A stretch of DNA of 64,000 bases from Flavobacteriaceae bacterium (GTDB lineage: Bacteria; Bacteroidota; Bacteroidia; Flavobacteriales; Flavobacteriaceae): the NCBI GenBank assembly GCA_014238425.1, contig JABABD010000020.1:145536-209535 (forward strand). Direction: 5' to 3'. A program made the position numbers and the translations under genes. The notes under the pieces are model-generated. The model was not told the origin of the DNA and searched no databases. It saw nothing but the letters and a program-made list of their open reading frames with translations. Position 1 is the first letter of the stretch. Each line of letters begins with the position of its first letter. Positions 57,902-61,338 of the stretch are shown piece by piece.

Positions 57902-58441
57902 ATGAAAAGATTGCTTCTTATATTATCTACTCTCTTCTTAGTTAACTGTGGCTCATCAGATTTACCGACTGAAAAAGCTGCTAAAATCAAAACATTTAAG
58001 AATAAAAACATCGAAGCTAAATACCCTAAAACTTGGATTAAATTTGGAGGTCTAGATTATGTGTATTTCATGCCAAAAAAAGTGAGGGATAACAATTTCG
58101 AAAATGAAGTTGAACATGTTTCTATAAATAAAAACAACATTCAAATAAATAGTTTCAATCAAATAGAAAATGTTCTAAATAAACATGGAAATACTTTAAC
58201 AAGAAATCAAATAAAAAAGAGTTTTGAATTAGTTAAATTAAATTCTCAGGCAAAATTTATTTATAAAATTGAATCCTTTATAACATATAATTCTAGCCCA
58301 AATACCTACAAAAGAGTCGAGTATTTTTATCAAAATCAGGGCATGTTAAAATATTTCATTTATCAAATGAGAGAAGAATTGTTTGATTTATATCATGAAG
58401 ATGCTTTGTTTATTATAAACTCAGTTCATAATAAAAAGTAG
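57902..58441 (+). CDS. Hypothetical lipoprotein
   Basis: Signal peptide and LVNCGSS. No recognisable domain. Its stop is 3 nt before the lgt start. Confidence 0.4.
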   Translation: MKRLLLILSTLFLVNCGSSDLPTEKAAKIKTFKNKNIEAKYPKTWIKFGGLDYVYFMPKKVRDNNFENEVEHVSINKNNIQINSFNQIENVLNKHGNTLTRNQIKKSFELVKLNSQAKFIYKIESFITYNSSPNTYKRVEYFYQNQGMLKYFIYQMREELFDLYHEDALFIINSVHNKK

Positions 58442-58444
58442 GCT

Positions 58445-59188
58445 TTGCAAATCCCCTTTGAACCTCAAATCTTCGGATACCAAATAAACATTCACCTCAT
58501 TCTAGAATATGCTGCTTTTTTTACAGCGTTTCGCTACTACGTGTATTTAAGACGACATCAAACCGATACTATTTCGACTTTAAACAGATTGTCCATTATC
58601 CTTGGCGCCGCTTTGGGCGCGTTAATTGGATCACGATTGGTTGGGTTTCTGGAGAATCCGTTGGTAGAAATCTCCCAAGGAGATATCATTCAACTACTCA
58701 ATACCAAAACCATTATGGGAGGTTTATTTGGCGGGTTGTTAGGTGTAGAAATTTCTAAAAAAGTGATTGGCGAAAACACCTCGTCTGGCGATTTGTTTAC
58801 GCTACCCATTATCCTAGGAATCTTTATTGGTCGCATTGGTTGTTTTCTTTCTGGAATTAATGAATTTACTTACGGAAAAGAAACCGCATTCTTCACAGGA
58901 ATGAACCTAGGTGATGGCCTAAACAGACACCCTGTGTCGCTCTACGAATTAGTGTTTTTAGTCATATTGTTTTTTGGTCTTCAGCATCTTTATAAACATC
59001 GCGACTTACCAAACGGGCGACTCTTCAAATACTTTATGATTACCTATTTTTTCTTTCGTTTCTTTCTTGAATTTCTCAAACCCAATGTATTTTATGTCTT
59101 GAGCCTAAGCACAATTCAGATATTATGCATAATTTGTTTACTCTATTACCATAAAACCATCATTAAGCTATTTACCAATGCCCGTTAG
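58445..59188 (+). CDS. lgt: Prolipoprotein diacylglyceryl transferase homolog
   Basis: GRIGCFLSGINEF (Lgt signature G-R-x-G-N/C-F-x-N-x-E) and RHPVSLYE (E. coli RHPSQLYE). 7 TM helices. TTG start. Confidence 0.65.
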   Translation: MQIPFEPQIFGYQINIHLILEYAAFFTAFRYYVYLRRHQTDTISTLNRLSIILGAALGALIGSRLVGFLENPLVEISQGDIIQLLNTKTIMGGLFGGLLGVEISKKVIGENTSSGDLFTLPIILGIFIGRIGCFLSGINEFTYGKETAFFTGMNLGDGLNRHPVSLYELVFLVILFFGLQHLYKHRDLPNGRLFKYFMITYFFFRFFLEFLKPNVFYVLSLSTIQILCIICLLYYHKTIIKLFTNAR

Positions 59189-60569
59189 AAAATACACGTA
59201 TTACGATTTTACTTTGAGTCTCTGTCCAGAATGCCTCAAACGTGTCGATGCGAAAATTGTCTTCGAAAATGATAAGGTATATATGCTAAAACGTTGCAAC
59301 GAACACGGCAATTCTAAGGTGTTAATTGCTGATGATATTGAATACTATAAAAACATTCGCAACTATAACAAACCCTCTGAAACGCCTTATAAATTTAACA
59401 CCAAGACACACTATGGCTGTCCATACGATTGTGGCTTATGTCCTGATCACGAGCAGCATTCTTGTTTGACGATTGTAGAAATCACCGATCGTTGTAACCT
59501 AACCTGTCCGACTTGTTATGCTGGCTCATCGCCTACTTACGGAAGACATCGCACTCTCGATGAAATCAAGACCATGCTAGATACTATTGTTACAAACGAA
59601 AAGGAACCTGATGTCGTACAAATAAGCGGTGGTGAACCAACTATTCATCCGGATTTTTTTGCCATTATGGACTATGCGAAATCCTTACCCATTAGGCATT
59701 TAATGCTCAACACCAATGGAATCAAAATTGCTAAAGACAAAGATTTTACAAAACGTTTAAAAAGTTACGCGCCCGATTTCGAGATCTATTTACAATTCGA
59801 TTCTTTTCAAAAAGATGCTTTGGTGGAAATGCGAGGTGCAGATTTACGTTCTATACGAAAAGAAGCGCTTCACAACCTCAACGAATTCAATTTGTCGACA
59901 ACACTGGTCGTTACGCTTCAAAAAGGACTAAACGATCATGAAATAGGAGACATTATCGATTATGCATTACAACAAAAATGTGTAAGGGGAGTCACGTTAC
60001 AGCCAACTCAAATTGCTGGTCGGCTTGATAATTTTAATCCAGGAACAGATCGTATGACCCTAACCGAAGTGAGGAGAAATATCATGGAACAAACCACAAT
60101 TTTTAATTCAGATGATTTGCTTCCTGTGCCCTGTAATCCCGATGCCTTAGTCATGGGGTATGCTCTTAAATTAGGTGGTGAAGTGTTTCCGTTGACGCGA
60201 TATATTAATCCTAATGATTTACTTGACAATAGTAAAAACACCATTGTATATGAACAGGACGAGGCTTTACACGGTAAAATGATCGAGCTCTTTAGCGCTG
60301 GGAATTCTGTAGAAGTTGCCGAGGAGAACTTGAAGTCCATTATGTGTTGTTTGCCGAATATTGATGCACCAGAATTAGGCTATGATAATTTGTTCAGGGT
60401 GATTATCATGCAGTTTATTGATGCCTATAATTTTGATGTTCGAGCGATTAAAAAATCCTGTGTACATATCGTTGATAAAGACAACAAGATTATTCCGTTT
60501 GAAACGATGAACCTCTTTTATCGCGATAATAAAAAGGCGTATTTAGAAGAACTTAAAAACGAGATGTAA
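59178..60569 (+). CDS. Radical SAM enzyme with an N-terminal zinc ribbon (COG1964-like)
   Basis: CPECLKR...CNEHG zinc ribbon; CNLTCPTCY cluster motif; GGEP SAM-binding; C-terminal Cys (CNPD, MCCLP, SCVH). It overlaps lgt by 11 nt. Confidence 0.7.
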   Translation: MPVRKYTYYDFTLSLCPECLKRVDAKIVFENDKVYMLKRCNEHGNSKVLIADDIEYYKNIRNYNKPSETPYKFNTKTHYGCPYDCGLCPDHEQHSCLTIVEITDRCNLTCPTCYAGSSPTYGRHRTLDEIKTMLDTIVTNEKEPDVVQISGGEPTIHPDFFAIMDYAKSLPIRHLMLNTNGIKIAKDKDFTKRLKSYAPDFEIYLQFDSFQKDALVEMRGADLRSIRKEALHNLNEFNLSTTLVVTLQKGLNDHEIGDIIDYALQQKCVRGVTLQPTQIAGRLDNFNPGTDRMTLTEVRRNIMEQTTIFNSDDLLPVPCNPDALVMGYALKLGGEVFPLTRYINPNDLLDNSKNTIVYEQDEALHGKMIELFSAGNSVEVAEENLKSIMCCLPNIDAPELGYDNLFRVIIMQFIDAYNFDVRAIKKSCVHIVDKDNKIIPFETMNLFYRDNKKAYLEELKNEM

Positions 60570-60570
60570 T

Positions 60571-60750
60571 ATGATTTTTGTATTGATACTTTGTGTTATG
60601 TTTGCGCCACCTATAATTTTTTTAGTTCTAGGAAGAAAAGCAAGGCCTGACAAGAAAAAAGCAAAGATGTTTTATATTATCGCCGCAGTCTATTTATTGG
60701 TCGGATTAGGCACTTGCGCCACTATTTTAACGAACTTAAGTATTCATTAA
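60571..60750 (+). CDS. 59-aa hairpin membrane peptide (not in the ORF track), paralog of the next gene
   Basis: MIFVLILCVMFAPPIIFLVLGRKARPDKKKAKMFYIIAAVYLLVGLGTCATILTNLSIH. Its ATG lies 1 nt after the radical-SAM stop. Confidence 0.35.
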   Translation: MIFVLILCVMFAPPIIFLVLGRKARPDKKKAKMFYIIAAVYLLVGLGTCATILTNLSIH

Positions 60751-60960
60751 ATGATTGCATCGATTCTTGAAATAGGAAATCTTGACGGGCTATTTATCCT
60801 TATTGGTCTCATTATGTTTGGGCCAGCCATTTTACTGGTGATTATCGGCCTTATCATCAGACGAAAAAACAAGAAAGCGGCCAAGGTTCTATTCATACTA
60901 GCCACGGTTTATGTAATTATTAGTTTAGGCATCTGCGGAACGCTTTTAGTTGGTGGTTAA
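60751..60960 (+). CDS. 69-aa hairpin membrane peptide, paralog of the preceding gene
   Basis: ...IIRRKNKKAAKVLFILATVYVIISLGICGTLLVGG. Its ATG directly abuts the previous stop. Confidence 0.4.
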   Translation: MIASILEIGNLDGLFILIGLIMFGPAILLVIIGLIIRRKNKKAAKVLFILATVYVIISLGICGTLLVGG

Positions 60961-61338
60961 TTACAATCGCTTCAACACCCAAAGCCCATAAAAGCCTAAA
61001 AAGAGCTCGGCAAAAGTTCCGAATTGATATCCAAAAGTTGGTTCTCCATCCAATAATAGGCTTAGCAATCTTCCAAATCCAAGACCTAGCATAAAGACCA
61101 TATTAGTGATTAGCGCCATTCTTAAATACGCTGACTTGAAAACCCCTAGAATCCACACTATTGAAAACCCTAAGTACAAACCCATAATGGCTTTAAAAAA
61201 ATTGTGCTCGTCAATCGTATTTAAATGGATGTCAAATTGAGCATCGGGTTGAAACCCATACACTAAAGACACAGGAATTACTATCAATACAGAGATGATT
61301 AAATGAATCTTAGTAATGATATGTTTGGCTATACTCAT
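60961..61338 (-). CDS. Small integral membrane protein (DUF4345-like)
   Basis: 4 TM helices. No catalytic motif. Confidence 0.5.
   Translation of the reverse strand: MSIAKHIITKIHLIISVLIVIPVSLVYGFQPDAQFDIHLNTIDEHNFFKAIMGLYLGFSIVWILGVFKSAYLRMALITNMVFMLGLGFGRLLSLLLDGEPTFGYQFGTFAELFLGFYGLWVLKRL

Follow-up and report, generated by a model that had tools for sequence, protein, structure and literature searches.

Prolipoprotein diacylglyceryl transferase (Lgt) is seen as an essential enzyme with a single function and as a target for antibiotics, and Tes as the archaeal tetraether synthase, whose bacterial homologues are used to infer the producers of branched glycerol dialkyl glycerol tetraether (brGDGT) biomarkers. 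Here we describe a locus in which relatives of both enzymes stand side by side. It lies in a window of 64,000 nucleotides (nt) from a Flavobacteriaceae bacterium (assembly GCA_014238425.1, contig JABABD010000020.1, positions 145,536 to 209,535 of the forward strand), where positions 58445-60960 carry genes for an Lgt paralog, a Tes-like radical S-adenosylmethionine (SAM) enzyme (rSAM) and two small cysteine-containing membrane peptides, which we call mini-proteins. Together these four genes form what we refer to as the module, a new combination built on two known enzyme kinds.

Bacterial Tes homologues have been noted previously and hypothesised, without tests, to make brGDGTs or other membrane-spanning lipids, with no mention of an Lgt partner or of mini-proteins (PMC8941075, PMC9433317, PMC11868695, PMC13459092). 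In one member of the Tes family, the GDGT-MAS enzyme MJ0619 (PDB 7TOL), the metal sites include C9X2C12X20C33X2H36 and a second site formed by C73/C77/C80 and a histidine (PMC9433317). For Escherichia coli Lgt, a 2026 study found Y26, H103, R143, N146, G154 and R239 to be absolutely required; the Lgt of Bacteroides thetaiotaomicron retains the required residues, and N146C occurs in distant Lgt homologues and in the second Lgt copy of Mycobacterium smegmatis (PMC13251419). Coupling of bacterial acyl tails has been demonstrated for Mss, a radical SAM enzyme of Thermotoga, which is thus a functional analogue of a possible role for the module rSAM, though it belongs to another radical SAM lineage, its hosts are anaerobes in which no Tes homologues were found, and no Lgt-like or mini-protein partner is described for it (PMC13159169). 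The nearest conceptual precedent is the computational prediction of Skillet-1 Lipocone operons, where a dedicated, non-canonical lipidating membrane enzyme is likewise operon-coupled to a substrate with a lipobox-like 'GS' motif; there, however, the enzyme fold is unrelated, the acceptor is serine rather than cysteine, the substrates have large extracellular domains and no radical SAM partner is present (PMC12419801). Full-text literature searches found no description of the module, in line with the statement in the original prediction for this DNA, made from its letters alone, that no characterised system of such composition was known.

The genes of the module are, in order:

58445..59188, + strand: Lgt paralog, 247 amino acids (aa), a seven-transmembrane (7-TM) membrane protein with a Pfam LGT match, the Lgt fold and a truncated periplasmic head; TTG start
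59178..60569, + strand: radical SAM enzyme of the Tes/TrsS family, 463 aa; 11-nt overlap with the stop of the Lgt paralog
60571..60750, + strand: mini-protein 1, 59 aa; two helices form a hairpin around a basic loop, and Cys49 belongs to LGTC (nt 60706-60717); 1-nt gap after the rSAM gene
60751..60960, + strand: mini-protein 2, 69 aa; LEIGNLDGL at the N-terminus precedes a hairpin of two helices whose basic loop is RRKNKKAAK, and Cys62 belongs to LGIC (nt 60925-60936); no gap after mini-protein 1

The module genes are spaced by -11, +1 and 0 nt and, with an upstream lipoprotein-like gene that ends 3 nt before the first of them, make up five co-directional open reading frames (ORFs) over 57902-60960; the ORF coordinates agree with the spacings given in the original prediction. 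Homologues of the Lgt paralog, which has a TTG start here, likewise begin MQIPFEP. Identical DNA is found in a marine metagenome-assembled genome (MAG) on a 484-kb scaffold (ENA ERZ23487945), where gene callers report all five ORFs. The nearest named relatives are Psychroserpens, Tenacibaculum, Lacinutrix and other Flavobacteriaceae.

The Lgt-paralog, rSAM and mini-protein genes are a co-inherited unit across phyla, and their linkage is specific as well as ancient. When an rSAM alignment was used to scan a single genome for each species, it yielded 80 loci with enzymes of 55-90% identity, to which two exact look-ups were added for a total of 82. Their hosts fall in about ten phyla: all major aerobic classes of Bacteroidota, Acidobacteriota, Gemmatimonadota, Planctomycetota, Gamma- and Betaproteobacteria, Cyanobacteria, Myxococcota, Eisenbacteria and Bacillota (Paenibacillus, Bacillus, Heyndrickxia, Fictibacillus and Gottfriedia). 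A same-strand Lgt-like ORF is present in 77 of the 82 loci; in 56 of these the two genes overlap or are at most 60 nt apart, in 14 they are 60-400 nt apart and in six the Lgt-like ORF is farther upstream. Three of the five loci without an Lgt-like ORF have no upstream DNA at all. Pairwise identities of the Lgt paralog and the rSAM co-vary (r=0.89), and in Tenacibaculum and Flavobacterium the flanking genes differ while the module is intact. When neighbouring ORFs were clustered all against all, no family besides the three recurred across taxa. As a control, we looked within 5 kb of TrsS-like rSAM genes in 80 metagenomic loci and found an Lgt-family ORF in none of them. The original prediction had named gene-neighbourhood conservation as a check, and an Lgt housekeeping copy whose adjacency to the rSAM is not conserved as what would refute it; instead, the two genes stay adjacent across phyla at the frequency given above, and the Lgt is a divergent, non-equivalog copy.

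The two enzymes also occur as natural single polypeptides. At least 57 protein clusters of 656-825 aa combine an LGT domain, the zinc ribbon and the rSAM, with named sources in Tepidisphaerales (Planctomycetota) and Verrucomicrobiota, in the order Lgt domain, linker, rSAM. Among three fusion loci that we looked up, two (L086 and L087) have a mini-protein directly downstream (...AFGLC-ITILKNLH, ...AAGLC-FAMAR) and none was seen at the third (L088). Because the genes are translationally coupled in this window and naturally fused elsewhere, the two enzymes probably act together physically.

Several further observations concern these loci. In the Planctomycetota and Verrucomicrobiota fusion loci, a 432-474-aa multi-pass membrane protein is encoded upstream and overlaps the start of the fusion gene (L086:2580-4004, L087:2703-4001); the copies are 52% identical, one segment is rich in Cys, and the N-terminus gives a weak rhodanese-like match that stays below cut-off (E=0.0019). 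This protein may be a lineage-specific fourth component, hinting at sulfur chemistry. The Joint Genome Institute (JGI) labels many Lgt-rSAM fusions (P0394-P0436) '7,8-dihydro-6-hydroxymethylpterin dimethyltransferase', likely a misannotation propagated from MJ0619, whose earlier assignment could not be corroborated by the GDGT-MAS study (PMC9433317). In one MAG (L011:934-1671) the Lgt-like gene is split into two ORFs, which may reflect an assembly error or a pseudogene. The rSAM on a scaffold of Lewinella cohaerens DSM 23179 (L014) is 83% identical to the Flavobacteriaceae enzyme, as against 68-74% for other Saprospiria loci, and its Lgt-like gene is non-adjacent, 3.9 kb upstream, suggesting transfer or contamination together with an insertion.

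In the case of the radical SAM enzyme, Pfam finds Zn_ribbon_HMPTM and Radical_SAM (3.1e-24) domains, and the comparison with 7TOL gives E=1e-69. The prediction that the protein belongs to a group with lipid-modifying enzymes among its members is thereby borne out, with placement in the Tes/GDGT-MAS family and not among SPASM/twitch maturases. Of the named NCBIfam families, TrsS (NF045646) scores best, at 331 bits against a cut-off of 490, with a full-length alignment (residues 12-455 to profile positions 3-440); Tes (NF045702) scores 301 bits against 450. We extended this comparison to module rSAMs from seven other phyla and two fusion proteins: these nine score 258-329 bits for TrsS, and those from other phyla 187-297 bits for Tes. 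Membership in either family was therefore rejected, as both cut-offs are missed uniformly across phyla and the TrsS-like loci have no Lgt neighbours. By these scores the module rSAM appears to be a third, unnamed clade of the Tes/TrsS family, sharing 86-91% identity across Flavobacteriaceae genera and 55-62% in other phyla. A search of the genes at module loci by neighbour clustering found no recurring archaeal-lipid genes.

Residue conservation, computed over 83 sequences, points to four metal-binding regions in the window enzyme:

59223..59306, + strand: CX2CX20CX2H (C16, C19, C40, H43), rubredoxin-like iron site; conserved in at least 99% of sequences
59418..59450, + strand: CX3CX2C..H (C81, C85, C88, H91), predicted N-terminal auxiliary [4Fe-4S] site; conserved in 99-100%
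59493..59516, + strand: CNLTCPTC, the radical SAM CX3CX2C motif (C106, C110, C113); invariant
60126..60467, + strand: C-terminal domain with C319, C390, C391, C428 and H430, predicted third cluster site; 100% conserved

The first three motifs match the published GDGT-MAS sites, with identical spacing in the rubredoxin-like one. For the C-terminal cluster, all four cysteines are conserved, and the ligand set is not matched residue by residue to that of GDGT-MAS. Both enzymes have a Cys-rich C-terminal domain with (M/I)DAYNFD: the MQFIDAYNFD...KKSC region of the window enzyme aligns with 7TOL, and M412 within it falls at MHFMDAYNFD of 7TOL, near the labile Met ligand. In the module rSAMs, this Met stays below the 90% conservation level. 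The module enzymes further differ from Tes in that the alignment is strong only to about residue 320, beyond which they have their own invariant C-terminal set, and in having an Lgt-like partner. From TrsS, to which they align at full length, they are set apart by uniformly lower scores and by the lack of Lgt-family neighbours in the control loci. The module hosts are bacteria, mostly aerobic, and to our knowledge are not known to make biphytanyl lipids.

The 247-aa membrane protein matches Pfam LGT (PF01790; 1.1e-24) and falls below the cut-offs of the equivalog models, with 43.9 bits for TIGR00544 (cut-off 118.9) and 43.4 for NF000778 (cut-off 334). Its AlphaFold2 (AF2) model (pLDDT 84, pTM 0.82) has a single significant PDB match by Foldseek, E. 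coli Lgt 5AZB (E=5.5e-6, TMq 0.60), with which it shares the 7-TM fold. Identity across Flavobacteriaceae genera is 72-82%. We aligned 74 unfused family members from related loci to E. coli Lgt (5AZB/5AZC) and located the following motifs in the window protein:

58829..58846, + strand: GRIGCF (residues 129-134), by alignment the equivalent of Lgt G142-R143-L-G-N146-F, with Asn146 replaced by Cys133
59045..59083, + strand: YFFFRFFLEFLKP (residues 201-213), in the 74-member alignment the equivalents of Lgt Y235, R239, E243 and R246 (here K)

In E. coli numbering, R143, G104, G145, G154, Y235 and R239 are invariant in 74/74, H196 is retained, and E243 occurs as E or D. Three substitutions are equally universal, N146 to C, Y26 to E and R246 to K (74/74 each), and the H103 position is hydrophobic (V, M, L, I or A). 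The window protein has E21, M91 (F95 by pairwise HMMER alignment) and C133 at the Y26, H103 and N146 positions. Thus, of the six residues required in E. coli, the paralogs keep R143, G154 and R239 in every member and replace the other three. Among the 57 fusion proteins, the N146 position is Cys in 47 and A, G or Q in 10. The segment from G154 to H196, which spans the periplasmic head between TM4 and TM5, is 18 residues long in all 74 paralogs versus 42 in E. coli. The diacylglyceryl-transferase signature that the original prediction had read here is consequently only partly there: the Arg143/Arg239/Tyr235 core stands, but the protein has Cys at 146, Glu at 26, GRIGCF for GRLGNF and MGGL for HGGL. 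Based on the sub-cut-off score, the active-site substitutions and the shortened head, we assign the protein to what appears to be a separate, paralogous Lgt clade, not the equivalog, with the Arg pair kept, the active site remodelled and the head domain lost. A phmmer search with an E. coli Lgt query, two segments of which agree with the 5AZB alignment, found no second Lgt-family ORF in the 64-kb window or in the 85 loci L001-L085.

The mini-proteins are the third element of the module. As had been proposed, the two in the window are paralogous TM hairpins (43% identity), each with two hydrophobic helices, a basic loop and a Cys close to the C-terminus in LG(T/I)C. Against orthologues, mini-protein 1 shows a proportion of nonsynonymous differences (pN) of 0.35-0.39 and of synonymous differences (pS) of 0.65-0.72; for mini-protein 2, pN is 0.21-0.24 and pS is saturated, reaching 0.90 over both. 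Because pN (0.21-0.39) lies under pS (0.65-0.90), both small ORFs are taken as real, translated genes under purifying selection. Orthologues of mini-protein 1 are the shorter first copies in the Psychroserpens, Winogradskyella and Olleya loci, and those of mini-protein 2 adjoin the enzyme pair across Flavobacteriia. Absence or frameshifting of the small ORFs in relatives, which would have spoken against the prediction, is confined to isolated MAG cases; they are otherwise conserved. One such MAG has a mini-protein ORF cut to 40 aa (L025:2444-2566), possibly an assembly error or a pseudogene.

ORFs were also chosen blind to cysteine, by size, position and at least two hydrophobic segments only. 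On this basis 67/82 loci have a small ORF with at least two TM segments at the module, and a Cys falls in the last 25 residues of 89 of 94 such ORFs, compared with 64 of 116 control ORFs elsewhere in the loci. The Cys motif varies by lineage: LGIC in Flavobacteriia, G(F/A)GAC in Pedobacter, GFTAC and GVSVC in Chitinophagia, LN(A/G)(A/S)C in Bacillota, Planctomycetota and Acidobacteriota, and NG(G/A/S)C in Cyanobacteria. A set of 80 mini-proteins was picked by this motif, so that only the features around it are informative. In 74 of the 80, the 12 residues before an uncharged stretch (median 16 residues) are net positive, and the stretch leads to small-small-Cys and then a tail of 3-14 residues (median 7). 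The window examples read RRKNKKAAK + 17 residues + C and RKARPDKKKAK + 16 residues + C. This setting resembles a lipoprotein signal peptide, in which a positively charged n-region leads into an uncharged h-region of 7-22 residues ending at Cys.

A small membrane protein with such a Cys is present beside the enzyme pair in about 70 loci. Copy number at the module ranges from one to five, with some copies in tandem, and sequence conservation is largely confined to the Cys motif. Gene and helix order are permuted as well: in Chryseobacterium and Sphingobacterium the genes of the two enzymes are separated by a small gene, and the Cys helix comes first instead of last in several Acidobacteriota and Betaproteobacteria, giving N-terminal versions. 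Pfam and NCBIfam returned no mini-protein match above cut-off. We considered NF058595, the 'lipo-invert' C-terminal anchoring domain, for which 11 of the 80 gave weak matches (best E-value 0.0076) that we took as compositional; the single per-protein score, for a Flavobacterium-type sequence (L005), was 12.0 bits against a 37-bit cut-off. No publication on this 2026 NCBIfam model was found, and it may describe a related idea, lipid anchoring via a C-terminal helix.

Other features of the mini-proteins were noted in passing. In Flavobacteriia, Chryseobacterium and Sphingobacterium, the mini-proteins have a conserved acidic motif ahead of the first helix, at the N-terminus, which reads LE(V/I)GNLDGL or LLEGSFGS (for example at window 60751-60795 and L047:5756-5989) and is missing from the window 59-aa copy and from long-type mini-proteins of other phyla. 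The latter, of 85-125 aa, occur in Bacillota, Planctomycetota, Cyanobacteria and some Acidobacteriota (L062:7435-7716, L066:7401-7721, L072:7441-7767) and have extra conserved intramembrane polar residues, namely a His within helix one and, in the helix that leads up to the basic loop, Q-L-x-Y-x-x-P, of which the flavobacterial equivalent seems to be MFGP.

What could such a module do? The original prediction had suggested a lipidated mini-protein, or an rSAM-modified lipid or lipoprotein, and these remain putative but best-supported readings. We tentatively favour a mechanism of two steps, which we regard as a reasonable possibility: the Lgt paralog would first attach a lipid to the Cys of the mini-protein, on the outer side of the inner membrane, and the tails of this lipid would then be modified by the rSAM in the cytoplasm. 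The Cys helix would imitate a lipoprotein signal peptide: a basic segment comes first, then about 16 residues without charge, then small-small-Cys, with 3-14 residues as a tail. Under the positive-inside rule, a cytoplasmic basic segment would leave the Cys on the outer side of the cytoplasmic membrane, which is where Lgt has its active site. There the Lgt paralog, which has Arg143/Arg239 and Tyr235 and lacks the head, would transfer a diacylglyceryl (or related) group from phospholipid to the Cys. The rSAM, with all four metal sites of a tetraether synthase, would then carry out Tes-type radical chemistry on the hydrocarbon tails of this lipid, which would be held by the Lgt paralog and the mini-protein with its tails reaching out of the outer leaflet in the direction of the cytoplasmic face. 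If this chemistry resembles that of Tes, tail termini may be joined by C-C bonds, either inside a single lipid or with a lipid of the inner leaflet, and the product may be a mini-protein with a tail-modified, possibly macrocyclic or membrane-spanning lipid. The most specific version, in which the Tes-like enzyme welds the tails of a thioether-linked glycerolipid on the mini-protein together or to a lipid of the opposite leaflet, would be a new protein-lipid modification, and we consider it unlikely.

Two lines of argument support this arrangement. The C-terminus of E. coli Lgt is cytoplasmic; given this and the fusion order of Lgt, linker and rSAM, the rSAM would lie on the cytoplasmic side, which fits its need for SAM and reductant. 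Variable copy number, permuted gene and helix order and conservation confined to the motif suggest that the mini-protein is a substrate rather than a structural subunit, and this substrate-like behaviour favours the lipidation model over a pure subunit role. Compared with Lgt itself, the putative acceptor is again a Cys after a basic segment and a hydrophobic helix, and the paralog keeps R143, G145, G154, H196, Y235, R239 and E243 (E/D). In contrast to Lgt, the module copy is below cut-off, has the N146, Y26, H103 and R246 changes and the shorter head described above, and is paired or fused with a radical SAM enzyme, while its putative substrates are dedicated mini-proteins with -1 often I, V or T and the Cys helix usually last.

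A number of points weigh against the mechanism. Three residues required in E. coli Lgt are replaced, and the paralog may bind lipid without transferring it. The second M. smegmatis Lgt homologue, MSMEG_5408, an extra copy in which, as in the module copy, Y26 is replaced (here Y26H) and N146 changed to C, is presumed to be of low activity (PMC13251419). Position -1 to the Cys holds A, S or G in 33 of the 80 mini-proteins; in the other 47 it holds I, V or T, and the two window proteins have T and I, which is no canonical lipobox. Nor do the window proteins have the lipobox [LVI][ASTVI][GAS]C at the N-terminus, their Cys helix being the last one. No mini-protein adjoins the enzymes in about 10 loci. 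An AF2 model of a natural fusion (pTM 0.65) has a disordered linker and no defined interface. With a cytoplasmic rSAM and a Cys predicted at the outer face, the enzymes would meet only via the lipid tails, and we know of no report of tail-coupled lipids from Flavobacteriia. What supports the mechanism is gene linkage and motif conservation, and the steps beyond these are inferred.

Several alternatives deserve consideration. The one that survives best, although we judge it somewhat unlikely, is that the enzyme pair modifies bulk phospholipid tails, e.g. iso-branched ones, into diabolic-acid-type or macrocyclic lipids, with the Lgt paralog as an inactive anchor or lipid presenter and the mini-protein as an accessory or regulatory subunit. 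In favour of this possibility, many host groups (Bacteroidota, Bacillota, Acidobacteriota, Myxococcota and Xanthomonadales-like Gammaproteobacteria) have plentiful iso-C15 fatty acids, and the ends of these chains are similar to phytanyl termini; against it, we know of no report of membrane-spanning or macrocyclic diacyl lipids from Flavobacteriia, Bacilli or cyanobacteria. The replacement of Y26, H103 and N146 suits an inactive Lgt paralog, as does the finding that Cys at position 146 is dispensable in 10/57 fusions, but the lipid-phosphate-binding Arg pair of Lgt and Tyr235 are strictly retained. Likewise, the roughly 10 loci without an adjoining mini-protein fit an accessory role, yet the signal-peptide-like conserved Cys, the permuted helix order and the one to five tandem copies are hard to square with a mere subunit. 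Lipid tails are what the Tes family acts on, and the pocket of isolated GDGT-MAS contained bound phospholipids of E. coli (PMC9433317); on the other hand, iso-diabolic acid production in Acidobacteria is not tracked by Tes homologues (PMC13159169).

A second alternative, which we find distinctly improbable, is a lipopeptide made in the manner of peptides that the ribosome synthesizes and that are modified after translation (RiPPs). Here the mini-proteins would be precursors in which the rSAM makes a thioether or C-C cross-link and the Lgt paralog lipidates the Cys, after which signal peptidase II would free a short lipopeptide (Cys plus 3-14 residues) as a signal, antimicrobial or envelope component. 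Tandem, fast-diverging small ORFs beside a radical SAM enzyme would fit, and cleavage of the helix in the way of a lipoprotein signal peptide would leave the short tail behind the Cys (median 7 residues) as the mature part. However, the rSAM has no SPASM or twitch Pfam domain and no RRE domain, which led us to reject a SPASM/twitch RiPP maturase, and its NCBIfam matches to maturases are confined to the rSAM core (residues ~93-268) and score 33-52 bits, where the cut-offs are 170-850. The structural relative nearest to it binds lipid tails, neighbour clustering found no recurrent protease, exporter or immunity gene at the module, and the predicted topology parts the cytoplasmic rSAM from a periplasm-facing Cys and tail. 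Unlike patchy RiPP clusters, the module is near-universal, conserved and single-copy in whole classes. Finally, the reading that takes this lgt for an ordinary prolipoprotein diacylglyceryl transferase with a housekeeping role, beside which the rSAM and small ORFs lie by chance, as the Pfam LGT match, the name used in public records and the lack of a second lgt in the window and in L001-L085 might suggest, is scarcely credible given the equivalog score (43.9 vs 118.9), Y26E, H103M and N146C at required positions that B. thetaiotaomicron Lgt keeps, a head region of 18 residues vs 42, adjacency in 77/82 loci, the existence of fusions, and the same Lgt clade adjoining the rSAM in Bacillota and Proteobacteria, where it would be an extra copy if canonical lgt is, as far as we know, universal there.

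The genes flanking the module do not travel with it. Immediately upstream lies:

57902-58441, + strand: lipoprotein-like ORF, 179 aa, with a lipoprotein-type N-terminus, MKRLLLILSTLFLVNC; its stop is 3 nt ahead of the Lgt-like gene

The original prediction had noted how close this gene ends to lgt. We ruled it out as a member of the module and take it for a neighbour, because a homologue is missing from all of the more than 80 related loci; it appears to be a lineage-specific insertion ahead of the module. Downstream, a DUF4345 membrane-protein gene at 60961-61338 (- strand) converges on the mini-protein 2 gene, the two stop codons meeting without a spacer, and no terminator-like hairpin was seen between them; this gene is not recurrent at the module in other taxa. 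Promoter and terminator scans at the locus gave counts at chance level, with a consensus unsuited to Bacteroidota.

The linkage described here ties a large, conserved bacterial clade of 'Tes homologues' to an Lgt paralog and a Cys mini-protein. Its carriers include essentially all sampled Flavobacteriia, Sphingobacteriia and Chitinophagia, together with members of Bacillota, Acidobacteriota, Cyanobacteria, the Planctomycetota-Verrucomicrobiota-Chlamydiota (PVC) group and Proteobacteria. Module rSAMs should not be counted untested as tetraether or membrane-spanning-lipid synthases in environmental surveys. The module is a concrete, genetically tractable system for learning what bacterial Tes-family enzymes do, and protein lipidation of the Lgt type may have in it a second branch, one dedicated to its own substrate. 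If a tail-welded, protein-bound lipid were indeed its product, ordinary aerobic bacteria of many phyla would have a macrocyclic or membrane-spanning lipid tethered to protein, one that would escape standard lipid extraction.

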